A DNA stretch of 51,754 bases, taken from Bacteroidales bacterium. GTDB taxonomy: Bacteria > Bacteroidota > Bacteroidia > Bacteroidales > CAIWKO01. Below the pieces are notes generated by a model. The model was not told the origin of the DNA. It saw only the letters and a list, made by a program, of their open reading frames with translations, and made no database searches. Position 1 is the stretch's first letter. Each line of letters starts with the position of its first letter. A program made the translations under genes and the position numbers. The DNA lies in assembly GCA_035389045.1 (NCBI GenBank), contig DAOORA010000027.1, positions 1 to 51,754 of the forward strand, given 5' to 3'. Shown piece after piece: positions 4,194 through 51,655 of this stretch.

Positions 4194-4997
4194 ATGAATC
4201 ATCAGTCAGACGTTACCATAAGAAATTACGTAAAGGCGATATGGAACTATCGTTACTTAACATACTCGCTGGGTATTGGTGATATTAAGAAAAAATACTC
4301 TTTGAGAACTTTCGGGGTGTTTTTCAGTGTTTTACAGGTTGTCATTACTTTGGTTGTTTACTGGGCAATTTTTGGTGTTATTCTGGGTGTGGGTGTATGG
4401 GGTATTCCTTATCCCCTGTTTGCCTTGCCGGGAATTATTATGTGGCAGTTTTTTTCTGCTACTGTTGGTTCAATGAACGCATCATTGCATAATTCATCCA
4501 ACTTAATATCCAAACTGTATTTTCCGAGGATCAATCTTCTGATTTCACGTCTTATCATTACACTGCCTGATTTACTTATTGGATTAGCCATTTATTTTTT
4601 GTTACTGTTGTATTACAATCAGTCGTTTATCATATCCTGGCTGTGGATATTGCCCCTGATTTTCTATCTGATTCTGGTAACCTTCGGTGTTGGCCTCTGG
4701 CTTAGTATCGTTTCGCTATATCATAAGCAGACTGGAGATATATTGCTTCAATTGGTCAGTTTTTGCTTTTTCATAACCCCGGTTTTTTATCCGGGAACTA
4801 TCGTTCCGGAACACTATAAAATACTTATGAATATTAATCCCATGGCTGCTGTTATTGATGTGTTCAGGGAGTCTTTTTTTATTAGCTTTCCAAAAGACAA
4901 TGGTTATATTATGGGATTTATACTGGGGTTGCTTTTATTTGCCAGTTCGTGTATATTTTTTATGAGAATTGAAAAAAAGATAGCTGATTTGTTATGA
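4194..4997 (+). CDS. wzm: ABC-2 type polysaccharide/O-antigen export permease
   Basis: ~6 TM segments; motifs YPLFALPGIIMWQFF, NLISKLYFPR, FFITPVFYP, INPMAAVID..R; overlaps the ATPase start (ATGA). Confidence 0.92.
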   Translation: MNHQSDVTIRNYVKAIWNYRYLTYSLGIGDIKKKYSLRTFGVFFSVLQVVITLVVYWAIFGVILGVGVWGIPYPLFALPGIIMWQFFSATVGSMNASLHNSSNLISKLYFPRINLLISRLIITLPDLLIGLAIYFLLLLYYNQSFIISWLWILPLIFYLILVTFGVGLWLSIVSLYHKQTGDILLQLVSFCFFITPVFYPGTIVPEHYKILMNINPMAAVIDVFRESFFISFPKDNGYIMGFILGLLLFASSCIFFMRIEKKIADLL

Positions 4998-6226
4998 CAG
5001 AAAAAGTGGCTGTTGAGATTAAAAATGTTTCTAAAAAATATTCCCTTCAGGGAATGAGAACTGCAAAATTTTTGAATTTTATCAATTTACATATAAAAGA
5101 ACAAGAAGCCTTTTTCGCTTTAAAAAACGTTAATTTAACGATCTACAAAGGTGAAATACTTGGAATTATTGGTCCAAACGGAAGCGGAAAAAGTACACTC
5201 CTGAAATTAATAAGCCAAATCACTTCTCCCTCTGGAGGAGAAATTGAAATAAACGGGAAGGTTGCATCGATACTTGAAATAGGAATTGGTTTTCAGCCTG
5301 AACTATCGGGTCATGAAAATATTTTTTTATCAGGTTATATGTACGGCCTCAGCAAAAGAAAAATTGAACAAAACATTGATAACATCGTTGAGATGTTCGG
5401 ATTCCCTGATTTTATTCATACACCGGTTAAGAATTACTCATCAGGGATGTATATGCGTCTGGCTTTTTCAATAGTTTGTCATATTGAAGCAGATATTTAT
5501 TTATTTGATGAGGTGCTAAGTGTGGGTGACGAAAAATTTCAAGGTATTGCAATTAATGAAATAAGGAAAATCAAAGAAAAAGGTGCAAGTGTTTGCATAG
5601 TAACACATGCACATAAAAGCATTTCCGATCTATGTGATAAGGCCTTGTTGTTAAACAAAGGGGAAGTAGTTTCTTATGGACAAACTCATGAAGTACTGAC
5701 CTCTTATGCCCGATTAATATACAAATCAGATGAGCACGATGATAATCTGTGTTTTGAAATATCAGGAGCGAATCTCGCATCAAAAAATCATATTTTTTTA
5801 AAAACCAATGATTTTGTTTTTGTTGCAGAAGAAATAAGGGTAAAAAATGATCCAAATATTGAGGAACATCTTTATAACAATCGAAAATTAATTATTGAAA
5901 TAATATTTAGTTTACAATCAATTATCCCTATAAAGCTGGTGCTTTTTATTAAAGAAAGGTATGACAATATTTTAACATCGTATTTAAACGATTTTTATCC
6001 GATGCCCATACAAGAAAAATGTAAAATAACCATATCTTATGACGCTAATACGTTTAATCCTGCAACATATACTCTCGACTTAGTTGTTCTGGTAAATGAA
6101 GAATATGCACAATCATATTTAAATATTCTGAAATTTAACCTGATTGATGAAAAAAATATTATAAGTAATAATTTTAATATTGGATATATAAACATTCATG
6201 CAACTTCAAATATTGAAAAAATTTGA
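4994..6226 (+). CDS. wzt: Polysaccharide ABC exporter ATP-binding protein with C-terminal extension (Wzt_C-like)
   Basis: Walker A GPNGSGKST, GFQPELSGHENI, signature YSSGM, Walker B LFDEV, H-loop VTH; ~170 aa beta-rich C-terminal domain. Confidence 0.92.
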   Translation: MTEKVAVEIKNVSKKYSLQGMRTAKFLNFINLHIKEQEAFFALKNVNLTIYKGEILGIIGPNGSGKSTLLKLISQITSPSGGEIEINGKVASILEIGIGFQPELSGHENIFLSGYMYGLSKRKIEQNIDNIVEMFGFPDFIHTPVKNYSSGMYMRLAFSIVCHIEADIYLFDEVLSVGDEKFQGIAINEIRKIKEKGASVCIVTHAHKSISDLCDKALLLNKGEVVSYGQTHEVLTSYARLIYKSDEHDDNLCFEISGANLASKNHIFLKTNDFVFVAEEIRVKNDPNIEEHLYNNRKLIIEIIFSLQSIIPIKLVLFIKERYDNILTSYLNDFYPMPIQEKCKITISYDANTFNPATYTLDLVVLVNEEYAQSYLNILKFNLIDEKNIISNNFNIGYINIHATSNIEKI

Positions 6227-6338
6227 AAAATATATTTAACAGAATTAAAAAAGGTATCTAAATCATTTGAAATCAAGAAAAAAGGTTTTCTTGGGTTTGG
6301 TTTAAATATGGAGTACAATACATCAAAAACTCATTGCC

Positions 6339-7871
6339 TTGCAAAACATCATTGTTTTTTTCTATCCTGATGCCAAAGGAGATTATATAATACCCCCTTA
6401 TGCTTTTTTATATTTAGAAAGGGCCATAAGAGATTTAGACTTAAGAGTAGTAATACTTGATGAAAAATTGGATACTGACTGGGAACAACAGGTAAACAAA
6501 ATGGCGCCTGAAATATTAATGGCAGGAGTCAGCGTGGTGTTGGGAAACCAGATTACAGGAGCCGTTCATTTTTCCGGGATAATTAAACAAAACGGGGATA
6601 TCCCTGTAATTTGGGGTGGCTGGTTTCCAACATGGAAGCCCGAGGTGTGTCTGAATGAAGAATATGCAGACTTTGTTGTGTCGGGGCAGGGAGAAGCAGG
6701 ATTTTCATTTATTGTAAGAAATCTATTGGAAAGCAAAAGCATCGTTGAGGAGATAAATCATACTACTATTAAGAATTTAAAGTTTGAAAACGTCAGGAAC
6801 AAAGTACTAATAAGTCAAGTAGAGGCGCAGGATTTTAACGAATGGCCGGATATCAGATATGATCTGATTGATATTAGAAAATATGTGAGTTATTCTGAAG
6901 GGAAAGGAATACTTCGTTATTTTGCCACTGCCGGATGTCCCAATCGCTGCAATTTTTGTTTTTTATCCAGTTCATGGAAAGGGAAATGGTTTTCCAGGCC
7001 CGTTGAAAAAGTTATTAATGACATACGTTATTTTATTAGTGAATCCTCTGATATACAATATATTATTTTTGAAGACAATGATCTCTTCCACGACAGGAAC
7101 TTTATTTTATCATTTAGTCACGCTTTAATCAATAACAATTTAAATATTCAGTGGAGTGGCTCAGCCCATATCGGGGATTTTTTAAAAACCTATTCAGAAG
7201 AAGATATTAAAATAATGAAACTCTCGGGTTGCAGATCAATTGCTTCGGGCGCTGAATCAGGGGATCAACAGATAATAGACCTTTTAAATAAAAATTTACT
7301 GGTTTCAGATATTGTAAGATTTGTTTTTCTATTAAGCAGATACAATATTACACCTTGTTTTTCATTTATGGTATTGTTTCCCGGGAATCCCCAAAAAGAC
7401 TTGCTGGCAACTTTAAAATTAATAATGAAATTGATAAGGATTGATCCCTCCCTTGTGATTTTTTTAAACATATATGCTCCTTCTATAAATAATATTTTTT
7501 TAAAAAGAGCAATAAAATCAGGATATAGGCCACCTGAAAGTTTGGCTGGATTTGAAAAATTTGAGTTGAAACCCCAAAATATGCCATGGATCACAACCTC
7601 ATTATTAAAAAAGATGAAATATTTTGGGTTGTTTTATTTCCGGTTTTACTCAAAGAATCTTTTCAGATTTTCTTACCGGTATAACAGTCTGCCAGAATAC
7701 ATTATTCATTTCCTGGTATGGCCTTTTAACAAAATAAGATTTTATTTTGGAATTACAAATATAACTTTCCTCGGATGGTTATACTGTAAAATATTTATAA
7801 AAAAAGAAAAAGAATGGCCGGCAAATGACTCCTTAAACAAAAGCATCATTATACAGTACGAAAAGAAGTAA
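6339..7871 (+). CDS. B12-binding radical SAM protein (paralog group A)
   Basis: N-terminal B12-binding-like domain (WGGWFPT, GQGE), CPNRCNFC, GAESGD. The TTG start aligns with the N-termini of the next two paralogs. Confidence 0.9.
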   Translation: MQNIIVFFYPDAKGDYIIPPYAFLYLERAIRDLDLRVVILDEKLDTDWEQQVNKMAPEILMAGVSVVLGNQITGAVHFSGIIKQNGDIPVIWGGWFPTWKPEVCLNEEYADFVVSGQGEAGFSFIVRNLLESKSIVEEINHTTIKNLKFENVRNKVLISQVEAQDFNEWPDIRYDLIDIRKYVSYSEGKGILRYFATAGCPNRCNFCFLSSSWKGKWFSRPVEKVINDIRYFISESSDIQYIIFEDNDLFHDRNFILSFSHALINNNLNIQWSGSAHIGDFLKTYSEEDIKIMKLSGCRSIASGAESGDQQIIDLLNKNLLVSDIVRFVFLLSRYNITPCFSFMVLFPGNPQKDLLATLKLIMKLIRIDPSLVIFLNIYAPSINNIFLKRAIKSGYRPPESLAGFEKFELKPQNMPWITTSLLKKMKYFGLFYFRFYSKNLFRFSYRYNSLPEYIIHFLVWPFNKIRFYFGITNITFLGWLYCKIFIKKEKEWPANDSLNKSIIIQYEKK

Positions 7872-7905
7872 TTCAGGATATTTATCTCAGTTGTTTATTC
7901 AAGGA

Positions 7906-9444
7906 ATGAAGGATACTATAATATTAATTTTACCTGATGCCAAAGGCGAAGGTTTTATGCCGCCATATGCATTCCTTTATCTGGAACGTGCTATCAGAGA
8001 TTTATCACTGAATGTTATTATTATTGATGAACGTTTTGATGATGATTGGAAAGAAATTCTTATCTCAAATGCTCAGCGGTTGATGCTGGTGGGTCTAAGT
8101 GTTGCCATCGGTAATCAGTTAATATCTGCAATAAAAATATCTGATTTTATTAAAAATCAATTAAACGTACCTGTCATCTGGGGAGGGTGGCTGCCAACCT
8201 GGAAACCTGAATTATGCCTGTCGCATCCTTTGATCGATTTTGTGGCTGTTGGGCAAGGTGAGTTGATTTTTTCAAAACTTGTTACCACATTAATAAAACA
8301 AAATTTAAATAATGCTTCAGAAAGTTTTTCCGAAATACCAGGTTTGGGCTACAAGGTAAACGATAAAATGTTTATCAATCATTCCCATAAACATTTAAAT
8401 TATTCAGATTTTCCTCCTGTAAATTTATCATTAATTAATATTAAGCAATATACTCTTTATAGCAAAAATAAAAAGAGTAAAAGTTTTCATTATTTTGCCT
8501 CATATGGGTGTCCGTACCGTTGTAATTTTTGCTTTCCTGAAATGGAGTGGCGTGGAAAATGGTTTCATAATGAAATAAAAATAATCATTAATGAATTAAG
8601 GCATATCGTGAATGAAGCTAATGGAATAAATTATATTATATTTGATGATATTAATTTCTTTGGCAACCGGGCGTTTGTTATGAATTTATGCCGGGAATTA
8701 ATAAAAAATGAATTTCATTTTCAATGGAATGCATCAGGTCATATTAAAAACATATTATATGATTATTCTTATGAGGATTTAGAAATTATTAAGCAAGCCG
8801 GTTGCGAATCTGTTTTTGTGGGTGCAGAATCCGGAGACCAAAGAGTCCTGGATAAACTGAATAAGGATCTTACTGTTGATGAGATTATCGCATTTGTTAA
8901 GAAAATGCATCATGCACAAATTAAAAATTCGTGCAGTTTTATGGTTTTTTTCCCTGAAAACGCATGTACAGATTTTAAACTGACCATTAAACTTGTTATG
9001 CGCTTAATGACTATCAGCCCTTATTTTCATTATGCAATACATTATTACTTCCCGGCAAGAACTAATTATTACTATAAAAAAGCATCAGAATTTGGTTTTT
9101 CAATTCCTGATAATCTCGAGGATCTGTCAGTATTTTTTAAAAAAGATATTAATTATCGGTGGCACAAAGATTATTATTTAAAACTATTCAAATATTATGG
9201 AATGTATTATTTGCGTTTTTATAAACTTAATGATACTAATATAAAAACAAAATATAAGTTTTTAAATAGTCTGATCTATAAAATATCATGGCCATTCATC
9301 CGGGTAAGATTTTTTTTCAACTATTTTGGTTTCCCATTAGGAGGCTGGTTGTATTGCGATGTTTTATTTAAGAATATGGTGGATAAATATTTTTTTACAG
9401 ATCCCAACGATAGGTTTTTTATTGGCAGAATAAAAAACAGTTAA
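7906..9444 (+). CDS. B12-binding radical SAM protein (paralog group A)
   Basis: PPYAFLYLERAIRD, WGGWLPT, CPYRCNFC, GAESGD. ATG 7906 (MKDTII) preferred over TTG 7891 by alignment to paralogs. Confidence 0.9.
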   Translation: MKDTIILILPDAKGEGFMPPYAFLYLERAIRDLSLNVIIIDERFDDDWKEILISNAQRLMLVGLSVAIGNQLISAIKISDFIKNQLNVPVIWGGWLPTWKPELCLSHPLIDFVAVGQGELIFSKLVTTLIKQNLNNASESFSEIPGLGYKVNDKMFINHSHKHLNYSDFPPVNLSLINIKQYTLYSKNKKSKSFHYFASYGCPYRCNFCFPEMEWRGKWFHNEIKIIINELRHIVNEANGINYIIFDDINFFGNRAFVMNLCRELIKNEFHFQWNASGHIKNILYDYSYEDLEIIKQAGCESVFVGAESGDQRVLDKLNKDLTVDEIIAFVKKMHHAQIKNSCSFMVFFPENACTDFKLTIKLVMRLMTISPYFHYAIHYYFPARTNYYYKKASEFGFSIPDNLEDLSVFFKKDINYRWHKDYYLKLFKYYGMYYLRFYKLNDTNIKTKYKFLNSLIYKISWPFIRVRFFFNYFGFPLGGWLYCDVLFKNMVDKYFFTDPNDRFFIGRIKNS

Positions 9445-9541
9445 TTCAAAAGTCATACAAAGTCTGCACATTTAAACAGCTCATTTTTTGAAGTTTGTAA
9501 TATTACCGGCATGACAATGAAAATACAATACCTTTTGTTTG

Positions 9542-9549
9542 TACTTTTG
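9542..9549 (+). promoter_or_regulatory. Putative internal -7 promoter element
   Basis: TACTTTTG (TAnnTTTG) 34 nt before ATG 9584. Confidence 0.4.
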
Positions 9550-9583
9550 TATTATACGTGATACTGTTTGGTGTTATTTGCTT

Positions 9584-11128
9584 ATGAAAGATACCATTCT
9601 CTTTTTTTACCCGGATGCAAAGGCTGGAAATATTATTCCTCCTTATGCTTTTTTATATTTAGAAAGAACCATAAGGGATATAAATTTAAAGATTATCATC
9701 CTTGATGAGCATTTCGATGTCCATTGGAAAGAGACAATTCAGGATGAATTATCCCGAACATTAATTGCCTGTACAACAGTGATGATGGGTGAACAAATTA
9801 CCGGAGCCAGAGAATTTTCGATGTATATCAAACAGAAGAGTGCAGTGCCGGTTATATGGGGTGGCTGGTTCCCCACATGGCAACCGGAAGTTTGCCTGAA
9901 TGAAAGCTATGTTGATTTTATAACTATGGGTCAGGGTGAAGCTGCTTTTGCAGAACTGATCCATATGCTAATTAATGCTCCGATCAGCACCGAACCTCAT
10001 TTATTGAAAGGGATCGGCGGATTGGGATATAAGGTACAATCTGAGATTTGTATAAATCGACATTATAATTTCAAAGATTTTGATAATTATCCGTCTTTGA
10101 ATTTTGATCTTATTGAAATTCCGAAGTACATTGATCATACAAAAGATGGCGGAAAAGTATTTCGCTATTTAAGCAGTGCCGGATGCCCTTATCATTGCAG
10201 TTTTTGTTTTATCCCCCTGGGCTGGAAAGGCAAATGGTTCCCGAAATCTGTTGACACGGTGATCAATGAGGTGAAACAAATAATTTCAAACGCTCCGCAA
10301 ATAAACTACTTAAGTTTTGAAGATTTAAACTTTTTTGTTGATCATAAAAGGGTGATTGATATTTGCAATGGCTTTATTGACAATAATATCAATATATCAT
10401 GGTGTGCCACAACGCATGTTAAAACTTTTTTACAACAATATGATGATAATGATATAGAATTATTGAAAAAGGCAGGTCTTGATTGCATAATAGTTGGTGC
10501 TGAATCGGGAGATCAATCACTTTTAAATCAAGTCAACAAACAATTACAAATAAGTGAAATATTTGATTTTATTCGTATTCTTGATGATCATGAAATAAAA
10601 ACCAGTTGGAGCTTTATGGTATTATTTCCCACAGAACCAGGCAAAGATCTTAATAAAACATTAAAACTAATAATGCAAATGTTTTTAAAAACCCGTAAGT
10701 CTACCTTGCTTTATGTGGCATCAGTATATTGGCCGGCAACAAAAAGTAGTTTTTATCAAATTGCACTGCAAAAAGGGTTTGAACAACCAAAAGATTTAAT
10801 AAGCTATATAAAAATTGCAAATGAAGGTGCAGTATTTCCGTGGCATAAGGCATCTCATTTACGTAAATTAAAATATTTTGGAATGTTTTATTTTCGTTTT
10901 TACAAATATAATAATCCCGGAAAACCTGATGGTAAAGAATGGTTTCTTGAAAAAATTTTTTCGTTAGTATTCAGGCCATTTATTTTGTTGCGTTTCAGAT
11001 TGAAATACGTTGGTTTTCCTTTTGCAGGATGGTTGTATTGTTTGATATTCAAGAATAAAATTGACAGGGAGGGATATTTTACTCCAAAGGCAAACAGGTC
11101 GGTAACATATCAAATACAAAACTATTGA
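9584..11128 (+). CDS. B12-binding radical SAM protein (paralog group A)
   Basis: PPYAFLYLERTIRD, WGGWFPT, CPYHCSFC, GAESGD. ATG 9584 (MKDTIL) preferred over 9539. Confidence 0.9.
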   Translation: MKDTILFFYPDAKAGNIIPPYAFLYLERTIRDINLKIIILDEHFDVHWKETIQDELSRTLIACTTVMMGEQITGAREFSMYIKQKSAVPVIWGGWFPTWQPEVCLNESYVDFITMGQGEAAFAELIHMLINAPISTEPHLLKGIGGLGYKVQSEICINRHYNFKDFDNYPSLNFDLIEIPKYIDHTKDGGKVFRYLSSAGCPYHCSFCFIPLGWKGKWFPKSVDTVINEVKQIISNAPQINYLSFEDLNFFVDHKRVIDICNGFIDNNINISWCATTHVKTFLQQYDDNDIELLKKAGLDCIIVGAESGDQSLLNQVNKQLQISEIFDFIRILDDHEIKTSWSFMVLFPTEPGKDLNKTLKLIMQMFLKTRKSTLLYVASVYWPATKSSFYQIALQKGFEQPKDLISYIKIANEGAVFPWHKASHLRKLKYFGMFYFRFYKYNNPGKPDGKEWFLEKIFSLVFRPFILLRFRLKYVGFPFAGWLYCLIFKNKIDREGYFTPKANRSVTYQIQNY

Positions 11129-29806: not shown

Positions 29807-29879
29807 TCTTCTGTTGTTATTAAATACGAAATTATGAATAAAAACCAGAATAATCAATTATTTGTAGTATCTTTTTATT

Positions 29880-33154: not shown

Positions 33155-33156
33155 TT

Positions 33157-41926: not shown

Positions 41927-43246
41927 ATGTCTTTTTTAAGCAAAATAAAAAATAAAAACAGCATACGTTCCTATCAATCCTGTAAGGCTGCCGAAAAAAG
42001 TATGCGTTTTGGGCCCGGAGGCAGGGTCTCCGTTTGTTGTCATAACAACCGCGATATCATCGGAGTGTTTCCTGCGGATCGTATTATGGAAATATGGAAT
42101 GGAGATAAAGCGTTGGCATTGCGAAAAATATTGTTAAAAAAATTTGCTGAGGGGTGCGATTACTGTAAATACGAAAGCCTTTCAGAACACAGGTACCGGA
42201 GTGCGGCATTATACGACAGGTACGAACCAGACCCAGACTATCCTGTTATTCTGGATTTCAAGGCCGATAATCGTTGTAATCTTGGTTGTATTATGTGTTC
42301 GGGATTATCATCATCTAAATTGCTGAACGATGAAAAAATGCAAAAAACAAACCCTTATGAAACTCCTGAATTTATTCAACAACTGAAAAAACTGATACCA
42401 AAAATTAAAGAAGCCCGTTTCAGTGGCGGCGAACCGTTTTTGTCTGAATTATATTACCAAATCTGGGACCTCATCACAGAATTAAATCCTGAGTGTAAAA
42501 TTGTAGTTCAGACCAACGGCACCATTCTTAATGACAGAGTCAGGGAGCTATTGAACAGAGGAAATTTCCACATAAATATCTCTATTGATTCTTTTGAAAA
42601 AAACACGTATGAAAAAATCAGAATTGGCAGTTCATTTGAAAACGTATTAAGCAATATTAGTTTTTTTCAGGAATACTGCCTCTCTCAGAATCGTTTCTGG
42701 GGTATGACTGCCTGTGCGATGATAGAAAACATGAAAGAATTTAATAAGATCATTACAACATGGAATAATTATAAGGCATTTGGATGGTTTAGCGTTGTTT
42801 GGTTTCCTCCAAAACATGCAATTTGGACATTGAACACGAATGAAATAAAAGATACAATAGCCTTGTTAAATTCTATGAATAGTCCTGCTGAAAATGGTTT
42901 TGAGATCAATAATAAAAATGCCGGAATGGTTTTAAAAAACATGCTAACACAACAGTTATCGATTTCCGGGTCTCAAAATGATCCAAAGAACTATATCAGC
43001 AGTGAAAACTTTGAAAAATTAATCATTTCAGGCTTTTCAGCATCAGTAAAACAAAACCCTGTTTTCAAAGACCTGCAGGTTCGTATTATGGAGTATTTTG
43101 CAGATAATCAGCAAAGCATGTATAGTAAAGAGAGTTACAAAAAAATTCGTAATTTTACTTCTGATGAGTATTTTTTAGAAATTCTTGAATTAATGGACCA
43201 AAATAGTATTAGCAGTTTATTTGATTGTTTTAAAGTTCCCCGCTGA
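41927..43246 (+). CDS. Radical SAM protein with N-terminal twitch/SPASM-like domain
   Basis: CKAA...VCCHN...CDYC then CNLGCIMC, SGGEPF, QTNGT. Confidence 0.88.
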   Translation: MSFLSKIKNKNSIRSYQSCKAAEKSMRFGPGGRVSVCCHNNRDIIGVFPADRIMEIWNGDKALALRKILLKKFAEGCDYCKYESLSEHRYRSAALYDRYEPDPDYPVILDFKADNRCNLGCIMCSGLSSSKLLNDEKMQKTNPYETPEFIQQLKKLIPKIKEARFSGGEPFLSELYYQIWDLITELNPECKIVVQTNGTILNDRVRELLNRGNFHINISIDSFEKNTYEKIRIGSSFENVLSNISFFQEYCLSQNRFWGMTACAMIENMKEFNKIITTWNNYKAFGWFSVVWFPPKHAIWTLNTNEIKDTIALLNSMNSPAENGFEINNKNAGMVLKNMLTQQLSISGSQNDPKNYISSENFEKLIISGFSASVKQNPVFKDLQVRIMEYFADNQQSMYSKESYKKIRNFTSDEYFLEILELMDQNSISSLFDCFKVPR

Positions 43247-44706
43247 TGCATCCCGGATTTAAAAAAAATATCGCCAACCTAATTAAAGCCGGAAATAATT
43301 TCGCATACCTTTTTCGTAAAAACACTTCTGATAAATCTGATTACCAACCGATTCCCTATAATATTATTCATTCATTTAATAAAACAAGAACGTTAGGAGC
43401 TCAGCGCTATTTATGTTACGCTCCCTTCACGATGATGTATTTTGCTTTTAATGGCGAAGTAATTGCATGTTGCCATAACCGCAAGCATATTTTAGGAAAA
43501 TATCCCGGACAAAATATCAAAGAAATCTGGGAAGGAACAGAATTTAATAAATTAAGAGAATATATCCGGAATGATGACCTCTCTTTTGGTTGCGATGTCT
43601 GTAAATATGCCTTACTGGCTGAAAATTTCGACGGAGCTAAAAACGGGCTTTATGACCGCTACCGTGTAAAAAAATATCCGCAAATAATGGAGTTTGAATT
43701 GGATAACAGGTGTAATTTATCATGCATCATCTGTAACGATCTTTTCAGTTCTTCCATTGAAAAAGAAATGCATGGCAATAAAACGGAATCACCATACGAT
43801 GAGAATTTTGTCAAACAGATTATTCCATATTTAACTCATCTTAAACAGGCAAAGTTTTACGGCGGTGAGCCTTTTTTGATAAACATATATTATGACATCT
43901 GGGAAAAAATGCTTGAAATAAATCCGAAGATCGAAATTGTGATACAAACCAATGGTACTATTCTGAATGACCGTATAAAAAAATTAATGGAACGGGGCCG
44001 TTTTCATATTAATATTTCCATTGACTCTCTGAATAAGGAGAATTTTGAAAAAATCAGAAAGAATGCCGATTACAAACAAACAATGAATAATGTTGCCTGG
44101 TTTAAAGAATTTTCTGAACACAGCCATACGCATATTGGTATCATACCTACTCCCAACCGGCTTAATTGGCCGGATCTGCCGGAACTGGTCAATTGGGCAG
44201 GTTCAATAGGGGCAAAAGTTTATTTCAACACCCTGATCACTCCTTTGGATCTGGCCCTGTGGAATTTGCCTTCTTCTGAACTGGAAATTTTATATAATGA
44301 ACTTTCAAACAGGTTAATAGATACCAACAGCAGAATAGCAAAGGAAAATGCCCGTCATTATAATGACTTTTTAAAACAAATTCAGGCCTGGGGAGTAAAA
44401 AATAAAGCGGTTGCCTCTAATAAAACAAAAATAAGTAGTAACCAACTCAATGAAATCAGGGACCAGTTTTTAATACATCTTCAAAATGCACTTAAAGCAC
44501 AAAACCAGGCCGATTTGTTTTCCTTGTTTGAACAGGTGTACTTATCCTTAGACGACTATAGAAATAAAGAGTTTTTTTTCTTAGCCATAAATAAAGCGCC
44601 CATGGAAAAAGTCATTGAAGAACTGGCCACAAGAGATGTTGAGCATTTAAAAAAACTTATGGGGAAGAAAATCTATGAGGGTTCCAATGAATTTGAATTA
44701 ATATAA
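43246..44706 (+). CDS. Radical SAM protein with N-terminal twitch/SPASM-like domain
   Basis: CYAPF...ACCHN...CDVC then CNLSCIIC, YGGEPF, QTNGT. Confidence 0.88.
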   Translation: MHPGFKKNIANLIKAGNNFAYLFRKNTSDKSDYQPIPYNIIHSFNKTRTLGAQRYLCYAPFTMMYFAFNGEVIACCHNRKHILGKYPGQNIKEIWEGTEFNKLREYIRNDDLSFGCDVCKYALLAENFDGAKNGLYDRYRVKKYPQIMEFELDNRCNLSCIICNDLFSSSIEKEMHGNKTESPYDENFVKQIIPYLTHLKQAKFYGGEPFLINIYYDIWEKMLEINPKIEIVIQTNGTILNDRIKKLMERGRFHINISIDSLNKENFEKIRKNADYKQTMNNVAWFKEFSEHSHTHIGIIPTPNRLNWPDLPELVNWAGSIGAKVYFNTLITPLDLALWNLPSSELEILYNELSNRLIDTNSRIAKENARHYNDFLKQIQAWGVKNKAVASNKTKISSNQLNEIRDQFLIHLQNALKAQNQADLFSLFEQVYLSLDDYRNKEFFFLAINKAPMEKVIEELATRDVEHLKKLMGKKIYEGSNEFELI

Positions 44707-44769
44707 AAATTCACTGTTGTCCGGTAAAAATATTTTAAATATGCTGAATAGCTTTATTTTCAAAACATT

Positions 44770-44926: not shown

Positions 44927-44932
44927 ACATAT

Positions 44933-45079: not shown

Positions 45080-45117
45080 ATATTTAAAAATTAACCGGAC
45101 AATAATGATAAAAATTA

Positions 45118-46497
45118 ATGATGATCACCTTCATAAATAAAATAATCCGTAACTCTTTACATAAAAAAAACAGCTTAAGCAGGATAAAACGCGGGTTTCA
45201 TTGTAAAGCGCCTTTTAACACCTTGTTTTTTTCAGTTACAGGAGAGGTTTTTCTTTGTCTTAGTAATAGGAATGATATTGTTGGGATTTATCCCCGTGAT
45301 TCCGTAAGGGAAATTTTCGAAGGAAATAACATTACACAATTACGCAAAGATTTCAGAAAAAATAAAGGATTACCGGGATGCGGATATTGTAAGGAACAAA
45401 TAAGTCTGGGTAATTACGATGCTGCTTTTACCCAGTTCAGCGAAGTAAGTTCACCAAAGGGAAAAATCACTGTTGTTGAATTTGAACTTTCAAACAGGTG
45501 TAATTTATCATGTGTAATGTGCAGTGATTTGTATTCTTCATTACACGATATCAATAAGAGATACCTATCTCCTTATGATGATGATTTTATTGTTCAGATT
45601 AAACCTTATTTAAGAGATATTAAACATGCAAATTTCAGAGGCGGAGAGCCATTTGTCATCCCTTTATATTACAAACTATGGGAGCATTTGATCTCGGAAA
45701 ACAAAAATGTAAGAATAGGCGTAACAACCAATGCCACTATCTGGTCTGAAAAAATTGAAGACTTATTGAAGAGTGGAAAATTCAATATTAGTATCTCTGT
45801 TGACACATTTAATAAATTTTTATATTCAAAAATCAGGCAGAATGGAAGTTTTGAGCATTTTACGGAAAACATCCACAAATTTATTCAATTCAGGAAAGCA
45901 GGATACTGCAATTTACATATTTGTACCTGCATCATGACAAATAACTGGATGGAAATGCCTGAAATATTCCGTTATTGTGAAAAAAATAAACTAAGAATAA
46001 GAATAAATTATGTGGAGAGTCCGGAATCACTTTCAATTAAATATGCCCCAAAACCATATATTAAAGAAATAATTCATTCTTTATCAGGATATAAAAATGA
46101 ATATCAATTTAATTTTTCTGTTTTTAATTCGATATTATCTATATTGGAACGATGGTATCTCTTGCCTGCCCGGGAGAAAAGCAGATGGGATGAAATGGAA
46201 GTAAGCAGCATTGCCCGGCAGCAATTTGAAAAGCAGAAAGACATTTTTTACATTAATTTACAAAATCGCGTTTGTAATGATACGTTTAATGAAGTAAAGC
46301 ATATTCTGGAGCCCTGCGAAACAAATCTTACCGGAGACGATGATTTGTTTTATTTTTATACCCTGTTGAATAAATTCCCAACTCAGGAAATAGTTGATAT
46401 TATAGATAAAAACTCGTTTAATAAGTATGAATTAGAAGAAAAAGTCGGAAAACTGATCGAAATTAGCAAACAGAAATTTACTATTAATAATGGCTAA
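45118..46497 (+). CDS. Radical SAM protein with N-terminal twitch/SPASM-like domain
   Basis: CKAPF...LC...CGYC then CNLSCVMC, RGGEPF, TTNAT. Confidence 0.88.
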   Translation: MMITFINKIIRNSLHKKNSLSRIKRGFHCKAPFNTLFFSVTGEVFLCLSNRNDIVGIYPRDSVREIFEGNNITQLRKDFRKNKGLPGCGYCKEQISLGNYDAAFTQFSEVSSPKGKITVVEFELSNRCNLSCVMCSDLYSSLHDINKRYLSPYDDDFIVQIKPYLRDIKHANFRGGEPFVIPLYYKLWEHLISENKNVRIGVTTNATIWSEKIEDLLKSGKFNISISVDTFNKFLYSKIRQNGSFEHFTENIHKFIQFRKAGYCNLHICTCIMTNNWMEMPEIFRYCEKNKLRIRINYVESPESLSIKYAPKPYIKEIIHSLSGYKNEYQFNFSVFNSILSILERWYLLPAREKSRWDEMEVSSIARQQFEKQKDIFYINLQNRVCNDTFNEVKHILEPCETNLTGDDDLFYFYTLLNKFPTQEIVDIIDKNSFNKYELEEKVGKLIEISKQKFTINNG

Positions 46498-47941
46498 CAA
46501 AGCATATAAATCCATTCTAAATTTTATTAAAAAAACAAACAAACAAGAAAAATTGCTTTGTTATGCCCCGTTTTATAGTTTGCTTATTGAACAACAGGGA
46601 AACCTTAAAGTTTGCTGTCATAATGTTTCCTATATACTTGGCAGATATCCCAATGACACGATTGCTGATGCTTGGTTTGGAAAGCAAAGAAAAGACATTA
46701 TCGATTGTATCAAACAGGATATCATTCCTGATTCATGCAAAGATTGTATAAGAAATGGATTAAGTATAAATCTTCCAGAAATACTTACCGAAAAAAAAGC
46801 TAAAAGAGCAATAATGAATTTTAATAATTTCCCTTTGCAGATAGATTTCATGATTGATAATACATGCAATCTGGACTGCATTATGTGCAATCCGCATGTG
46901 TCCAGCTCATCAACCTATCCAATGCCTTTTTATTCGGAAAAAACAAGATTTGAGGATGGCTTTTTTGAACAGATCAAACCTTTTTTAAAAAACGGAAAAT
47001 TTTTTGTATTTTCAGGAGGAGAACCATTTCTGATCCCAATGTATCTGAGCATGTGGGCGTATATTTCAGAAACAAATAAAACAGCAAGCATTTATGTTCA
47101 AACAAATGGAACTATCCTCAATGAGAATATTCGTAGTATAATAAAAGAATACAATCTGAGCATTGGAGTATCTATTGATTCATTGAAAAAAGAAGTTTAT
47201 GAAACAATCCGAAGAAATGCATCATTTGAGAAAACTTTCGAGAATTTGAATTTTTTTATTCAGCATTCACACACTATCGGACAGCCCATGACAATTATCA
47301 CAACCCCGATGATTTACAACGCAACAGAAATTCCCGGTATTGTTGATTTTTGTAATAAAAATAAAATAACTTTCACACTAAGTCTACTGGAAAGGCCTGC
47401 CCATCTTGCAATTTGGTCTTTACCTTCAATAGAAATCAATAAAATCATTGTTTCCAATCAAAGAGCCACATTCCCTGGCGCAGCTGATTCGCCAATAATT
47501 AACAAAAATATCGCAACATATAATAAGTATATCAAAATTTTACAAAACACTGCTAAACAAAAGAAATATCTGGAAGACAATTCCGTCGTTATTTTAAAAA
47601 ACATAAAAAAAAGAACAACGTATGTAAAAGAAAATTTTGAAAATTATATCAGATCTAACATAAATAAATACAGCCTTTCAGAAGAAGAAAAAAAAAGATT
47701 ATTCAATAGAATAATGTCGATTTCCAATAGTGTTTTTCAAAAACACTCACTACTTTTTAAAGAACCGGACATGTTATATTCTTATTTCATACAAGATAAC
47801 AGGTTAAATGGTCTTAGCAATTTAAGCAATCATAGTGATGAAGAAATTGAAATACTTTTGGATATCAAAATGAAAGAACTAAAGGTGTTATTTGATACAA
47901 ACTCCTACGATCGCATAATAGACATTGATGTTAATGAATAA
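46490..47941 (+). CDS. Radical SAM protein with N-terminal twitch/SPASM-like domain
   Basis: CYAPF...VCCHN...CKDC then CNLDCIMC, SGGEPF, QTNGT. Confidence 0.88.
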   Translation: MANKAYKSILNFIKKTNKQEKLLCYAPFYSLLIEQQGNLKVCCHNVSYILGRYPNDTIADAWFGKQRKDIIDCIKQDIIPDSCKDCIRNGLSINLPEILTEKKAKRAIMNFNNFPLQIDFMIDNTCNLDCIMCNPHVSSSSTYPMPFYSEKTRFEDGFFEQIKPFLKNGKFFVFSGGEPFLIPMYLSMWAYISETNKTASIYVQTNGTILNENIRSIIKEYNLSIGVSIDSLKKEVYETIRRNASFEKTFENLNFFIQHSHTIGQPMTIITTPMIYNATEIPGIVDFCNKNKITFTLSLLERPAHLAIWSLPSIEINKIIVSNQRATFPGAADSPIINKNIATYNKYIKILQNTAKQKKYLEDNSVVILKNIKKRTTYVKENFENYIRSNINKYSLSEEEKKRLFNRIMSISNSVFQKHSLLFKEPDMLYSYFIQDNRLNGLSNLSNHSDEEIEILLDIKMKELKVLFDTNSYDRIIDIDVNE

Positions 47942-49424
47942 ATTTCGTAACATAATTAAGGGATGCGCCTTGCCATTAATACGCATACTTAGATACAAAT
48001 CGGTTGTTCCTGTTAAAATGCGGGATGGCTACATGCAAAACAAAAACCTTAAGTACAATAACAACCGTTTTTACGGCCCTAAAAAGTATTTCTGTTATGC
48101 CCCCTTTGGCAGCATGTTCATCAGCTACAACGGCAAAGTTTCCCCTTGTTATGCCTGTAAAGCCGAAGAAAATTTAAACAACAAAACGTTACAGGAAATA
48201 TGGACCGGTGCTGTTTTTACCGGTTTAAGAAAACATTTTCAAAACGGGGAAATACCTGATGCCTGTTCTTTTTGTAAAAACCATTTATTGCAGGGGAATT
48301 ACGGCAGCATATTAGCTAATAAATATGACCATTATTTACTGTCACCCACCGGTAAGCCCGTTATTGCAGAACTTGAGCTGTCAAACAAATGCCATTTAGA
48401 GTGTATCATGTGCTCGGGCAGCCTGTCATCTTCTATCCGGGAAAAAAGAGAAAAACTGCCGCCTGTTACGCGGATGCTGCCGGATGATTTTATGAGGCAA
48501 TTTACCCCCTTTCTTGAAGAATTAAAATCGCTGGAACTGACCGGAGGTGACCCGTTGCTTATTGATGACTATTACCAAATACTATCAATTGCTGAAAAAA
48601 TAAACCCGGAGCTGGATATTCTTATAACAACAAACGCCAATACTTTTACACAAAAAGTTAGGGAACTTCTTAATAAAAAACTACGTTTAAGCTTTAATGT
48701 ATCCCTTGATTCCTTAAATGAAGAAACCTATGCTCAGATACGCCGTAACGGATCGTTGCAAAAAGCAATCGAAAATATTGACAGGTTTGCAGAATATGTG
48801 AATGAGCATAACACATCGCTGGGTTTTCTGGTTTGTCCATTGAAATATAATTGGAAAGAATTACCGCATTTTGTTGATTTTGCAAACAAATACAAAGCAA
48901 CATTAAGCTATCATGTGGTTTTTAAACCTGCAGAACACGCACTCTGGTCTTTTTCTTCTGAAATATTAAAAGAAATAGCATTATATCTGAAATCATTTAA
49001 ATTCAGCAGTTATGATTTTAACAGCCGGATTAATGTCAGGAGTTATAAGGCATTGGTAACCCTTATTGAAACGTGGCAATTAAAGGCATCGGCAAGAGAA
49101 CAAAAACAACAGCAGCTTCACAATGAAATGATGAAAAGCATTGATCTTGCGAAAAAGAAAGTGAAAGAAAACCTTAATGACGACCTGATGTTTGATACTT
49201 TAGAAAAAGCCATAAAAAACATGAAAGTGTTAGAATATGCAGGTTTAGTGTATATTGAACTTGCAAAAAAAACCAAACAAGAAATTACTAATGGTATTAA
49301 AACTTTTTCGCCTCTGGAATTAGAACGAAAAATGCAGCAATACCATTCTGATGTGCATGCCGGCTTTTTATACCAGGTGAATTTGAGTGATAACGACAAA
49401 TACATGAATAATTTAGCTGAGTGA
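47925..49424 (+). CDS. Radical SAM protein with N-terminal twitch/SPASM-like domain
   Basis: CYAPF...PCYAC...CSFC then CHLECIMC, TGGDP, TTNAN. True start may be ATG 47934. Confidence 0.88.
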   Translation: MMLMNKFRNIIKGCALPLIRILRYKSVVPVKMRDGYMQNKNLKYNNNRFYGPKKYFCYAPFGSMFISYNGKVSPCYACKAEENLNNKTLQEIWTGAVFTGLRKHFQNGEIPDACSFCKNHLLQGNYGSILANKYDHYLLSPTGKPVIAELELSNKCHLECIMCSGSLSSSIREKREKLPPVTRMLPDDFMRQFTPFLEELKSLELTGGDPLLIDDYYQILSIAEKINPELDILITTNANTFTQKVRELLNKKLRLSFNVSLDSLNEETYAQIRRNGSLQKAIENIDRFAEYVNEHNTSLGFLVCPLKYNWKELPHFVDFANKYKATLSYHVVFKPAEHALWSFSSEILKEIALYLKSFKFSSYDFNSRINVRSYKALVTLIETWQLKASAREQKQQQLHNEMMKSIDLAKKKVKENLNDDLMFDTLEKAIKNMKVLEYAGLVYIELAKKTKQEITNGIKTFSPLELERKMQQYHSDVHAGFLYQVNLSDNDKYMNNLAE

Positions 49425-50629
49425 TGAGCAAACAAAACGCTTATGTTTTTATAGTTTGCGGCGACAACGATTTTATCAGTACGCTGAACTTATCTTTGCA
49501 TGCCTTAAAGAAATTTTCAAAAAACAAAATTATCGTAGTCACCGATCTATCCAGAAACGCATCGGAAATAGAACATGATACTATTATTGACGTAAAAACA
49601 AATTCTTCATACAGCCATCATCAGGCAGCCATTTTTCTTAAAACTTCTATCCATAGATATTTGGATATGGATAATTTCCGGTATTGCTATCTGGATAACG
49701 ACATTTTGGCGATTAGCAGTGATGTTGACGGCGTTTTTGAACAAGCATTTGAAATTATTGGCTTTTGCCCTGATAATATAACATTTGACTATTTCAGCCC
49801 TTATGCTGTCCATTGTGAATGCATCGAAAAAGCGGCCGGACACCGGAATGTGCTGAATAATGCTATTCAGGAGTATTCAGAAATCCATGAAAAATGGGAA
49901 TCTGTATGTAACAGCCCTGATGGCAGAAAACTTGAACAAAAACTGAATATTGTAGAAAGAAAAAAATTCAAACATTGGGCTTCTTTAGTAAAATATGTTT
50001 TTCAAAAATATAATCCCTTTACAAAAAATATTTTTCTTTTTGATTGTAACCAGGAAAAACAAAGCGGGAAGTGGTTCAATAAGCAAGGAGAATTAATATT
50101 GTACCCCATAAAAAAGTACAAGGATTTTGTAGAAAATAAAACGGGATTTCGATATAACCATATCGAAAAATGCTGGACTTTACCCGGCGGCACCTTTGAT
50201 GTTACCAAACCCCGGTGCCGCCATCTGCATGATGAAATAAAAAAACAATTTAATATAGAAATAACTCCCGAAAACTGGCAGCACCCCAACGGAGGATTAT
50301 TCTTATTTGATAAAAACTCTGTTTGTTTCCTGGAAAGGTGGCATGAATTATCACTAAAGATATTTACTTTCAAGGAATGGAAAGTCAGGGACCAGGGATC
50401 GCTTGCAGTGACGTTCTGGGAATATGATCTGCATCGTCAGAAATTAATTCCCGAAACATTTAATTATATTCTTGATTATAATTGTGAAAAAACCGCCTAT
50501 CATCCTGAAATGGGCTATACAAAAAATAATTTCCAATCATATTGTTGGCCAAAATTCGTTCACATATTTCATCACTTCGGTGATAAAGACTGGCCACTCT
50601 GGAATGAAACAGAAAAATTTATCCGATAA
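49421..50629 (+). CDS. GT8-like / GT-A fold nucleotide-sugar transferase with a long internal insertion
   Basis: YLDND (DxD), PNGGLFLF, RDQGSL, FVHIFH motifs; ~150 aa insertion between the DxD and NxG motifs. Confidence 0.6.
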   Translation: MMSKQNAYVFIVCGDNDFISTLNLSLHALKKFSKNKIIVVTDLSRNASEIEHDTIIDVKTNSSYSHHQAAIFLKTSIHRYLDMDNFRYCYLDNDILAISSDVDGVFEQAFEIIGFCPDNITFDYFSPYAVHCECIEKAAGHRNVLNNAIQEYSEIHEKWESVCNSPDGRKLEQKLNIVERKKFKHWASLVKYVFQKYNPFTKNIFLFDCNQEKQSGKWFNKQGELILYPIKKYKDFVENKTGFRYNHIEKCWTLPGGTFDVTKPRCRHLHDEIKKQFNIEITPENWQHPNGGLFLFDKNSVCFLERWHELSLKIFTFKEWKVRDQGSLAVTFWEYDLHRQKLIPETFNYILDYNCEKTAYHPEMGYTKNNFQSYCWPKFVHIFHHFGDKDWPLWNETEKFIR

Positions 50630-50698
50630 AAGGATATACTTATATTTGGCGGGCTTTGGTGAAATTTGTATCCGAAGTGATTAAATAAAATTCTATGT

Positions 50699-51655
50699 TT
50701 AGGCATATCCATATCGATCATACCAGGTAAGGAATTTTCCAATTCCCGTATTTATATCAATACCTGGATGAAAACCCAGTAACCGGCGTGCTTTTGATAT
50801 ATCAGCCCAGGTCATTTCAGATTCACCCTTAACTTTTTCAAGAAAATTAAGTGTAATTTTTTGGCCGGATTTTTCTTCAAATAATTTAATAATATCAATC
50901 AAAGAAACCGGATTCCCATAACCAAGGTTAAAAATATCAAATAGATTTCCATCATAAGATAAGGCTTTTATCACTCCGTCAACAATATCGTCAATATAAG
51001 TAAAATCGCGCAATGCATCACCATTTCCCAATATCTGCAAAGGCTTGTTGTTCAATAGACTTTGGGCAATTTTTGTCATGATAAGATCCGGCCGCAAACG
51101 GGGTCCGTAAACAGAAAACAACCTTAAAGAAATGAAGCGTAAATCATATTTTTCTGAAAACTCTTTCCCGATCTGCTCTGAAATAAGTTTTGATTTTGCA
51201 TACGGGTTTAAGGGGTTGAGTTCTGTTTCATTCTCAATGAAAGGAACCCTTTTGATACTGCCATAGATACTTGACGAAGACGCGAAAATAAACCGCGGGA
51301 TATTCAATTTTACTGACAATTCAAGCGCCCTGGTTATACCCGTGATATTGTTTTCCTCATACCCTTCCGGATACAGTATCGAACTCCTCACTCCCGCTTT
51401 AGCAGCCAAATGTATTATGGCATTAATATCTGCAGGTAAAATTTTAAAAAGATCATGCAGACTACAAATATCTGATTCTATAAACCTGAAGTTCGGCTGA
51501 GACAGCGCATCCGAAATGTTTTTCTGTTTGATTTCCCTTGCATAAAAATCATCAAAATTATCAATGCCAATAACCTTAAAACCCAAATTGAGCAATTTGT
51601 CGGTAAGGTTACTTCCGATAAAACCCGCCGCACCGGTGATAAGGATGGTTTGCAT
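50699..51655 (-). CDS. NAD-dependent epimerase/dehydratase, UDP-glucuronate 4-epimerase-like
   Basis: ITGAAGFIG, HLAAKAGVR, ASSSSIYG, YAKSK, VYGPRLRPD, RDFTYIDD. Confidence 0.9.
   Translation of the reverse strand: MQTILITGAAGFIGSNLTDKLLNLGFKVIGIDNFDDFYAREIKQKNISDALSQPNFRFIESDICSLHDLFKILPADINAIIHLAAKAGVRSSILYPEGYEENNITGITRALELSVKLNIPRFIFASSSSIYGSIKRVPFIENETELNPLNPYAKSKLISEQIGKEFSEKYDLRFISLRLFSVYGPRLRPDLIMTKIAQSLLNNKPLQILGNGDALRDFTYIDDIVDGVIKALSYDGNLFDIFNLGYGNPVSLIDIIKLFEEKSGQKITLNFLEKVKGESEMTWADISKARRLLGFHPGIDINTGIGKFLTWYDRYGYA

Follow-up and report, generated by a model that had tools for sequence, protein, structure and literature searches.

A conserved array of radical SAM genes in a Wzm/Wzt glycan-export locus of Bacteroidales

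What might a bacterium build with 18 radical S-adenosylmethionine (SAM) enzymes that are encoded next to a glycan exporter? This question is posed by contig C27 (DAOORA010000027.1) of the Bacteroidales genome G000 (GCA_035389045.1), whose entire length of 51,754 nt is the window analysed here. At 4194..51655 it holds a locus in which the radical SAM genes stand together with a Wzm/Wzt-type ABC exporter, glycosyltransferases (GTs), an amino-sugar gene pair and a short fatty acid synthase (FAS) cassette with its own acyl carrier protein (ACP). The genes present, their intact motifs and orthologues, their co-occurrence and their fusions lead us to propose, with a probability of about 55%, that the locus encodes the synthesis of a lipid-linked surface glycoconjugate that contains an N-acylated amino sugar, and that each radical SAM paralogue would tailor its own residue or carbon. 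An undescribed envelope glycoconjugate pathway had already been suggested by a first-pass annotation of the bare sequence; this suggestion is supported by the present analysis, which found the system conserved in Bacteroidales.

The inventory reported by the first-pass annotation was exact according to motif and Pfam searches. The CxxxCxxC motif occurs in exactly 18 long open reading frames (ORFs) among the 37 coding sequences (CDSs) of the contig, 36 of which lie inside the locus, and all 18 products score above the gathering cut-off of Pfam Radical_SAM (PF04055). Nine of them contain a cobalamin (B12)-binding domain, seven an N-terminal SPASM/twitch domain and one a C-terminal SPASM domain, and one has neither. 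A stricter motif scan of the complete 4.46-Mb genome yielded 52 such ORFs, to which this 52-kb contig alone contributes 17; the scan overlooks the gene starting at 43246, which has an Ile at the aromatic position of the motif. None of these proteins scored high enough for an NCBIfam family with a named function (0/18), and within the window the twitch proteins are 28–39% and the B12 proteins 22–40% identical to each other, 40% being the overall maximum.

Despite their number, these paralogues have been kept one for one. Reciprocal best matches were sought in fetched stretches of three relatives, namely G014, which belongs to the same genus as G000, and G018 (closed, one contig) and G021, which represent another genus. 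They were found for 11 of the 18 radical SAM proteins in G014, for 12 in G018 and for 15 in G021; all 18 have one in at least one of the relatives and 17 in the other genus, at identities of 31–61% and with all motifs intact. In a quick tree of 75 twitch proteins, each of the seven from the window (Tw0–Tw6) pairs with one G014 copy (SH-aLRT 86–100) and then with the G018 and, except for Tw4, the G021 copies, and in a FastTree phylogeny of the B12 proteins a1–a3, c1, c2 and d pair with copies from G021 or G018. The gene order GT2-AsnB-Tw1-Tw2-Tw3-Tw4-Tw5-Tw6 is retained in G014 and in parts in the named metagenome-assembled genomes (MAGs) at loci L050, L054, L060 and L061, while G018 holds twitch, B12, SPASM, FAS, GT and Wzm/Wzt genes within ~58 kb. 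The first-pass annotation had made its reading depend on such co-occurrence, and the blocks are indeed found together in this closed genome and in other families. Recent tandem duplication within the window was considered and rejected, as the paralogues are at most 40% identical and both trees and reciprocal matches pair them across genomes. Judged by these comparisons, the array represents an ancient and conserved system whose core can be recognised. Because many divergent paralogues with intact motifs have long been retained, each presumably has its own job, and their one-to-one conservation across genera implies many distinct new reactions on sugars or lipids. Together with an entry point in a cultured organism (see below), the age, conservation and core of the array make the observation stronger than it appeared at first reading.

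The seven N-terminal-twitch proteins are encoded by Tw0 (28412..29857, minus strand), which lies between the acyltransferase and aminotransferase genes described below and has the same position in G014 (55% identity), and by Tw1 (40550..41920), Tw2 (41927..43246), Tw3 (43246..44706), Tw4 (45118..46497), Tw5 (46490..47941) and Tw6 (47925..49424), all on the plus strand. Tw3 was placed by the tree, and Tw1, Tw2 and Tw4–Tw6 by domain search, tree and reciprocal best match. In all seven the twitch domain precedes the barrel, which is followed by a helical domain of ~120 aa that is also seen at the C-terminus of the Tw3 model (predicted local distance difference test score, pLDDT, 94). NF033640 is the best family for each of them; Tw0 exceeds its cut-off (171.6 bits vs. 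170) and the others reach 135–169 bits. No function for this family or for N-terminal-twitch proteins was found in the family record or the literature. Four twitch cysteines (C57, C75, C116 and C119) are invariant in 85 of 85 sequences and align with those of BtrN, the best match in the PDB. BtrN is a radical alcohol dehydrogenase, and with other twitch radical SAM enzymes it represents a group of sugar dehydrogenases and epimerases. The four-Cys twitch domain is common to BtrN and the proteins described here, which differ from it by the N-terminal position of this domain, the barrel plus helical domain that follow, and their occurrence in arrays of up to 15. From the aligned cysteines we infer that the twitch enzymes may oxidise alcohol groups of sugars or cyclitols in a BtrN-type reaction.

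At least 716 N-terminal-twitch relatives were retrieved in a protein search. They include a GT32-twitch fusion (P0214, 797 aa; assigned to Paludibacter sp. by one source) whose GT32 part is 54% identical to a G014 protein, a sulfotransferase-twitch fusion from genome G291 (L074:2072-4393, 773 aa) and a double-twitch fusion (P0121, 981 aa). Phages contain distant twitch homologues only, in 45 phage records, mostly of Vibrio; a 26% identical homologue spanning twitch and barrel is encoded at OZ195935.1:176674-177489 and in related large Vibrio phage records (H1–H15). Among 11 plasmid matches one was close, and two giant proteins, one of them named Candidatus Kaelpia, matched distantly at 23–25% identity.

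The genes for the nine B12 proteins, all assigned by domain search, are a1 (6339..7871; 48% identity to its G021 orthologue), a2 (7891..9444; G021, 48%), a3 (9539..11128; G021, 60%), a4 (13239..14783; G014, 47%, grouping with a G021 copy), b1 (17807..19327; G018, 43%), b2 (19333..20865; G021, 45%), c1 (20852..22300; G021, 54%) and c2 (22304..23749; G018, 51%, G021, 50%) on the plus strand and d (24547..25902; G018, 46%, G021, 42%) on the minus strand. The last is preceded by the gene for the short radical SAM protein without either domain (23723..24550, minus strand, 275 aa; G014, 42%, G021, 44%). All nine exceed the cut-off of PF02310. Of the GG and GE motifs of the B12-binding Rossmann domain (PMC9204698), the GG and the Glu are invariant, and the Gly before the Glu is present in seven of the nine. 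These features point to the architecture of cobalamin-dependent (class B) radical SAM enzymes in nine proteins. The same combination of cobalamin-binding and radical SAM domains, with the GG and the Glu of the GE motif, occurs in HpnJ, calditol synthase, OxsB, AprD4, MgmA and TokK (PMC13459092, sections 13–14, and PMC9204698, as far as these texts were available). In contrast to these systems, the proteins of the window score far below the equivalog cut-offs, with best values of 202 (c1) and 224 bits (c2) vs. 578 for HpnJ (TIGR03471), 190 vs. 481 for BchE (TIGR02026) and 121 vs. 360 for the ladderane family (TIGR04072), and the locus offers no hopanoid or archaeal lipid context. The first-pass annotation had described class B enzymes as methylating or rearranging sugars and lipids; methylation was not borne out, as none of the nine proteins has the S-x-Y-x-W motif of the TokK/CysS/ThnK type or the Trp after the Cys loop (signatures from the available part of PMC9204698). 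Since the best families include HpnJ and BchE and the best structure matches are MgmA, AprD4 and OxsB (AprD4 aligning through the barrel alone), ring contraction or dehydration has to be considered on a par with methylation; precedents for both are given in the accessible text of PMC13459092 (sections 13 and 14).

Where, then, does the amino sugar come from? A PglD/VioB-type N-acyltransferase (27794..28384, plus strand) combines PglD_N and hexapeptide repeats, has VioB, PglD and PerB as best PDB matches and contains an aligned His that we take to be the catalytic residue of this enzyme type. The DegT-family sugar aminotransferase (30437..31537, plus strand; domain search) matches QdtB and WbpE, both presumably 3-aminotransferases, better than perosamine synthase, WecE or ArnB. 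The surroundings of DegT lack a gene for an NAD-dependent sugar dehydrogenase, and Tw0 is located between the two genes in the window and in G014; this arrangement, together with the twitch cysteines aligned with BtrN, suggests that the keto sugar may be formed by a radical route.

The adjacent core SPASM radical SAM gene (31522..32637, minus strand) is present in a single copy. Its product contains seven conserved SPASM cysteines, is 48–61% identical between families and has PqqE and SkfB as best PDB matches; in most loci the gene adjoins the FAS genes. A predicted complex with the ACP scored 0.02 and was counted neither for nor against an interaction. On the plus strand follow a FabZ/FabA-like dehydratase (32696..33154; domain and family search), two ketosynthases (KS) with an intact Cys-His-His triad, KS1 (33151..34440) and KS2 (34430..35707), the dedicated ACP (35725..35970) with the invariant motif DLKINSAR around Ser39, and a probable phosphopantetheinyl transferase (PPTase; 35974..36579), which matches ACPS at E 0.004, below the cut-off that the gene at the same position in G018 exceeds. 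KS1 is the only gene that lacks a reciprocal best match in G014, G018 and G021. The first-pass annotation took these genes for a dedicated type II FAS cassette, which claims too much: FabD, FabH, FabG and FabI have no counterpart in the window, and the cassette is an incomplete type II fatty acid synthase. The loci of relatives add one FabL-like short-chain dehydrogenase/reductase (SDR), for which G000 has no match at E 1e-15.

Aminotransferase, PglD homologue, KS and ACP, the set needed for an N-acylated amino sugar, occur together in a glycan locus in the window (27794–36579) and in its relatives. A similar set is known from Flavobacterium psychrophilum, where the predicted task of two ketosynthases, an ACP, a reductase and a PglD homologue is to attach a 3,5-dihydroxyhexanoyl group to an amino sugar of the O-polysaccharide (PMC6519341, available part). 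The likeness of wfpC-G to the present locus is one of gene content: both are Bacteroidota surface-glycan loci with two KS, a dedicated ACP and a PglD homologue. The wfp system differs in being Wzy-dependent and in having a ketoreductase, and the accessible text mentions no radical SAM enzyme, whereas Wzm/Wzt and 18 radical SAM proteins are found here (PMC6519341). In the present locus, the acyl group would be transferred from the dedicated ACP to the amino sugar. An SDR-FabZ-KS-ACP-PPTase cassette of the same gene order (KS 44–49%, FabZ 35–47% and ACP 34–38% identical) exists in other Bacteroidota, where in contrast to the amino-sugar pair and SPASM gene seen here it is associated with a type III polyketide synthase, methyltransferase and FAD oxidoreductase, or with a GT2/GNAT pair. 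As the same cassette serves such different partners, it seems to be a portable acyl module. In another class of the phylum it stands beside GT2 and GNAT genes (L115:5335-16096 and L116:7164-11333), in L115 also with a BioF/SPT-family gene, possibly as part of an unusual amide-lipid pathway. The loci of G018 and G021 include a GNAT gene, presumably akin to bacterial ceramide synthase, that resembles the one found beside the same cassette elsewhere, and a sphingolipid pathway was considered for this reason. It was dropped because no serine palmitoyltransferase (NF047600) passes the cut-off in any of five family genomes (G000, 321 bits vs. 640) and because the homologue in G000 lies on a separate 3-kb contig.

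The neighbouring genes named by the first-pass annotation were all recovered in domain and family searches, and they frame the array with functions in glycan assembly and export. An adjacent exporter pair opens the locus on the plus strand: the ABC-2 permease Wzm (4194..4997; PF01061, reciprocal best matches in G014, G018 and G021) and the ATPase Wzt (4994..6226), whose Wzt/TagH matches stay below the equivalog cut-offs of named subfamilies. The Wzt protein of the window has no Wzt_C match in its C-terminal extension of ~160 aa; 5 of 11 homologues match this domain at E < 0.05, one of them over the cut-off, and the extension probably is a Wzt_C-like glycan-binding domain. In E. coli O9a-type loci, too, a permease and an ATPase with a C-terminal glycan-binding domain are encoded alongside glycosyltransferases; in contrast to that type, no WbdD-like terminator was identified here, and tailoring seems to be mostly the work of radical SAM enzymes. 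Further plus-strand genes encode an AsnB-like amide ligase that lacks the N-terminal catalytic Cys and keeps the ATP-loop GGxD (11489..13249), a GT-C-like membrane glycosyltransferase (14773..16965; PMT_2 at cut-off, homologues in G014, G018 and G021) and a UbiA-family membrane protein (16962..17810; PF01040, PDB matches AfUbiA and DGGGP synthase) with a degenerate first Asp-rich motif. An SGNH/GDSL protein (25907..27712, minus strand; domain search), whose gene adjoins a carbamoyltransferase gene in relatives, is a probable O-acyl transferase or esterase. A GT2 glycosyltransferase (36572..37549, plus strand; domain search, 61, 49 and 41% identity in G014, G018 and G021) precedes a complete AsnB-type amidotransferase (37537..39306, plus strand; TIGR01536 over cut-off, Cys2 present) and a protein weakly assigned as transglutaminase-like (39258..40517, plus strand), which has an N-terminal hydrophobic segment and invariant C124, H151 and D166. 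It was matched in Atlas (0.88), to PNGase (E 1.5) and by Foldseek to TG2 (E 0.008), and a fold search with its model (pLDDT 65) yielded nothing at E 0.001. Downstream of Tw6 lies a GT8-like (GT-A) glycosyltransferase (49421..50629, plus strand; Atlas features 0.95, TM-score 0.51 to GT8 clusters), the N-terminal 138 aa of which are 43% identical to a GT fusion protein of Methylomagnum, and an NDP-sugar epimerase/dehydratase gene (50699..51655, minus strand; domain and family search) closes the locus.

If these parts are combined into one pathway, the order of its steps being inferred throughout, Tw0 or the SPASM enzyme would oxidise a sugar hydroxyl to the ketone without NAD in the manner of BtrN, and DegT would aminate the keto sugar. 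KS, FabZ and the dedicated ACP would build a special acyl group together with housekeeping FAS enzymes; the SPASM enzyme probably would modify this group before the PglD-like enzyme attaches it to the amine. GT2 and the GT8-like protein, joined in relatives by GT32, would assemble the chain, and the two AsnB proteins would add amides. Tw1–Tw6 might then oxidise or epimerise, and the cobalamin-domain enzymes C-methylate or ring-contract, fixed positions of the product. Finally, Wzm/Wzt would flip it outwards, to be finished or anchored by the GT-C, SGNH and transglutaminase-like proteins. A glycan is favoured as the substrate of the array by the fusions of twitch domains to GT32 and sulfotransferase, by the Wzt_C-like tails and by the gene run of Methylomagnum, which lies among glycosyltransferases.

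This run is found on plasmid NZ_AP019784 of the cultured methanotroph Methylomagnum ishizawai (strain RS11D-Pr). It starts with a polyprenyl synthase gene and contains a single twitch gene (K5658_RS21510; 37% identity to Tw3), asnB, ubiA, the GT8-like fusion, wzm and wzt. Within the family of G000, twitch homologues were detected at E 1e-60 in 8 of 22 genomes; in wider scans, for which three candidates were scored per genome, 20 of 401 genomes of an order-level sample and 4 of 401 of a phylum sample were positive, G000 being included in both. The core SPASM gene was present in 18 of 401 order-level genomes, apparently of the identical sample, and 16 genomes possess both genes (16/20 and 16/18). 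DegT, PglD-like, SPASM, SDR-FabZ-KS-ACP-PPTase, GT2, AsnB, twitch, transglutaminase-like, GT8-like, GT32 and wzm/wzt genes form a shared core, which recurs in other Bacteroidales families (G130, G235, G401, G316, G213, G332 and G414) and includes minimal loci with one or two twitch genes (G401, G332 and G414). The first-pass annotation knew of no characterised envelope locus with so many radical SAM genes, but the number as such is surpassed in G010, where the fetched stretch (G010:C22:27000-102000, L019–L023) contains 15 twitch and 16 B12-type radical SAM genes, wzm/wzt pairs and two ubiA genes, and neither SPASM nor KS. As all gene counts per locus, this one covers fetched stretches only; those for G316 are partly doubled by overlapping stretches.

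Several observations weigh against the proposed surface glycoconjugate or against parts of it. The fetched loci differ widely in copy number, with between 1 and 15 twitch and between 0 and 16 B12 genes, and some duplications are specific to G010, which speaks against a single fixed assembly line. Twitch genes occur without the core SPASM gene in G010, G114, G262 and G375, are scattered over several contigs in G045 and stand alone, without glycan genes, in three Chitinophagales loci. The overlap of twitch and SPASM is not an independent test, as the co-occurring genomes are partly kin, and a Fisher test of it was set aside for this relatedness; 6 of the 16 seeded the SPASM profile, and among the 10 that did not are several with the two genes on different contigs. 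A fold search with the Tw3 model returned generic radical SAM barrels only, and the predicted structure appears equally close to viperin, SkfB and BlsE (Z 13.6–13.7) as to any sugar enzyme. CobS and CobQ were not found in G000, which thus would have to scavenge cobalamin; methylmalonyl-CoA mutase and a DUF5074 protein are present. In aerobic relatives, moreover, twitch genes are accompanied by arrays of PhyH dioxygenase genes, by FabH and by acyl-CoA ligase, an association that suggests acyl chains as substrates.

The PhyH arrays occur in G698 and G498, oxidase-bearing genomes of one genus of another order. In G698, 14 PhyH matches lie in tandem on one contig beside twitch, B12, SGNH and carbamoyltransferase genes; in G498, five are contained in the fetched stretch, and G000, G014 and G018 have none. 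Within the fetched stretches, 10 (L105:670-9686) and 5 (L103:10613-16034) tandem PhyH genes adjoin twitch and B12 radical SAM genes. L103 also encodes two Asp/Asn beta-hydroxylases, a WelO5-like protein and a reductive-dehalogenase-like Fe-S protein. It is tempting to think that the radical SAM arrays do without oxygen what Fe/2-oxoglutarate dioxygenase arrays would do at the related loci of aerobic Bacteroidota, and that they form an ordered, position-specific assembly line in which ~18 enzymes (>30 in a relative) would each act on one site of one envelope glycolipid. We regard this extension as tentative and doubtful in its full form. The oxygen contrast is a lead only, because G568, from the same family as the PhyH-bearing genomes, has twitch genes and no PhyH in the fetched stretch, and because G014 has oxidases without PhyH. 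If the assembly line were true, uncultured Bacteroidales would produce surface molecules of a new class, with extensive methylation, oxidation or ring contraction.

Among the alternatives, the one that survives best would direct the arrays to the hydrocarbon part of an exported glycolipid, with one paralogue methylating, desaturating or cyclising each carbon of a prenyl chain or of an acyl chain carried by the ACP, as a radical counterpart of the dioxygenase arrays. This is unlikely in our view, although a real contender. It would explain why in most loci the SPASM gene is a direct neighbour of SDR/FabZ/KS/ACP, why PhyH genes stand in tandem beside twitch and B12 genes in G698 and G498, and why polyprenyl synthase and UbiA genes flank the twitch gene of Methylomagnum. 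Twitch loci without the FAS core (G010, G114 and G007) have a second UbiA type, with an intact first Asp motif in G010 and G007, and B12 radical SAM proteins with FAS genes have been proposed for ladderane synthesis (PMC13459092, section 19, in the part available). However, the fusions detected are to glycosyltransferase and sulfotransferase and none is to ACP or KS, and 18 positions seem too many for a single short KS cassette. The pairing with PhyH, furthermore, is based on two congeneric genomes and a single plasmid gene, and in G014 oxidases are present and PhyH is not.

A less probable explanation is that of a variable envelope island composed of independent modules, in which many paralogues would duplicate each other's function, vary the surface as a defence against phages or act jointly as a hetero-oligomer with one activity. 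Such an island would fit the low guanine-plus-cytosine (GC) content of the contig (34.4% vs. 40.9% in G000), the blocks on both strands, the order between blocks that is shuffled among relatives, a transposase gene in G018, the patchy presence within the family and the recent duplications in G010, G015 and G213. Against it stands the one-to-one retention of 17 of 18 enzymes across two genera with motifs intact; if the copies were redundant, their persistence at 31–61% identity would be unexpected.

We consider it improbable that, instead of a surface polymer, the locus yields a phosphoglycolipid or an aminoglycoside-like metabolite for secretion. Moenomycin synthesis employs an AsnB-type ligase, a class B radical SAM enzyme, a prenyltransferase, a carbamoyltransferase and an ABC exporter. 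The locus contains all of these enzyme classes if the carbamoyltransferase of relatives and of contig C91 is included, and AprD4 and BtrN are among the PDB matches. Yet the exporter is of the Wzm/Wzt type with a Wzt_C-like tail, and the GT-C, SGNH and probably exported transglutaminase-like proteins imply work beyond the inner membrane. Least credible of all, SPASM and twitch proteins might be maturases of peptides or metalloenzymes, similar to those of ribosomally synthesised and post-translationally modified peptides, as the SPASM matches to PqqE and SkfB and the adjoining AsnB and transglutaminase-like genes, reminiscent of the C and B proteins of lasso peptides, could suggest; but no protein reaches a maturase family cut-off, the transglutaminase-like protein has its N-terminal hydrophobic segment, and the large gaps hold host repeats instead of candidate precursor genes (no systematic small-ORF search was made).

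Returning to the surface glycoconjugate, the system by its gene content resembles Wzm/Wzt glycan loci to which an N-acyl amino-sugar module of the wfp type has been added. It is neither a complete type II FAS nor a sphingolipid pathway, and no ladderane or hopanoid cluster or set of TokK-type methylases. Anammox ladderane clusters share with it B12 radical SAM genes, a dedicated ACP, FabZ and two FabF homologues (PMC13459092, section 19, as available), but the B12 proteins of the window reach only 67–121 bits in TIGR04072, and their genes are embedded in a glycan-export locus. The first-pass annotation held the pathway to be undescribed, which agrees with the literature: a full-text search, most subscription papers being outside its scope, retrieved no description of such a radical SAM array, and the available parts of PMC10352776 and bioRxiv 10.64898/2026.06.07.730766 describe no such locus. 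The scaffold of Wzm/Wzt export and N-acyl amino sugar is familiar; the radical tailoring is not. Its reactions could be useful to enzymology and glyco-engineering as well as to studies of lipid biomarkers in anoxic systems, and handles are now available in the single-copy SPASM marker, the glycosyltransferase and sulfotransferase fusions and the one-twitch version in Methylomagnum.

The integrity of the contig was examined in several ways. G000 has a completeness of 96.3% and a contamination of 1.65%. Non-coding interspersed repeats of several families, without a match in Rfam, occupy positions 1–613, 2966–4193, 11129–11488, 29858–30436, 44707–45117 and 51700–51754; copies 82–98% identical are found on 25 to 67 contigs of G000, and one family also terminates many contigs. 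As the large gaps and the contig end thus carry the repeats of the host, C27 belongs to G000. A chimeric assembly, which the first-pass annotation had named as a danger, or a misbinned contig was rejected within these data on the grounds of these repeats and of the synteny in the closed genome G018. In each of two further DNA runs, contigs account for 29 of the 30 bins into which the region 31.5–51.5 kb was divided, with almost no differences, no listed piece spanning the stretch. Contigs X6 and X8 from RNA libraries cover 23 and 10 of the 30 bins, ACP and PPTase included, although assembled contigs cannot show transcription. The genes are organised tightly, with 24 of 29 same-strand junctions overlapping or at most 32 bp apart (longest-ORF starts). 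Frequent translational coupling and co-orientation had been noted in the bare sequence; the arrangement comprises several blocks on both strands and not one operon. A membrane-TPR protein gene (614..2965, plus strand) outside the locus, with a GC content of 39% nearer the host average, probably is not part of the pathway.

The first-pass annotation took the host to be probably anaerobic, which fits G000, where COX1 was not found and near-identical DNA is present in activated-sludge and digester runs, but does not extend to the genus, as G014 has COX1-family oxidases. LpxB is present in G000. The locus probably continues beyond C27: contig C131 encodes an eighth twitch protein, grouping with the G014 copy that comes after Tw6, and the C91 segment (C91:3514-13573; GC 36%), with carbamoyltransferase, SGNH and SxtJ-like genes, probably is its continuation, the carbamoyltransferase being 66% identical to that of the G014 locus. 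Elsewhere in G000, contigs C1 (13283-19697), C42, C63, C64, C65, C70 and C11 contain further B12 radical SAM genes, ketosynthases and three extra wzm/wzt pairs, and C108 (112-2997) encodes two tandem, more distant N-terminal-twitch-like radical SAM proteins with a host repeat between their genes.

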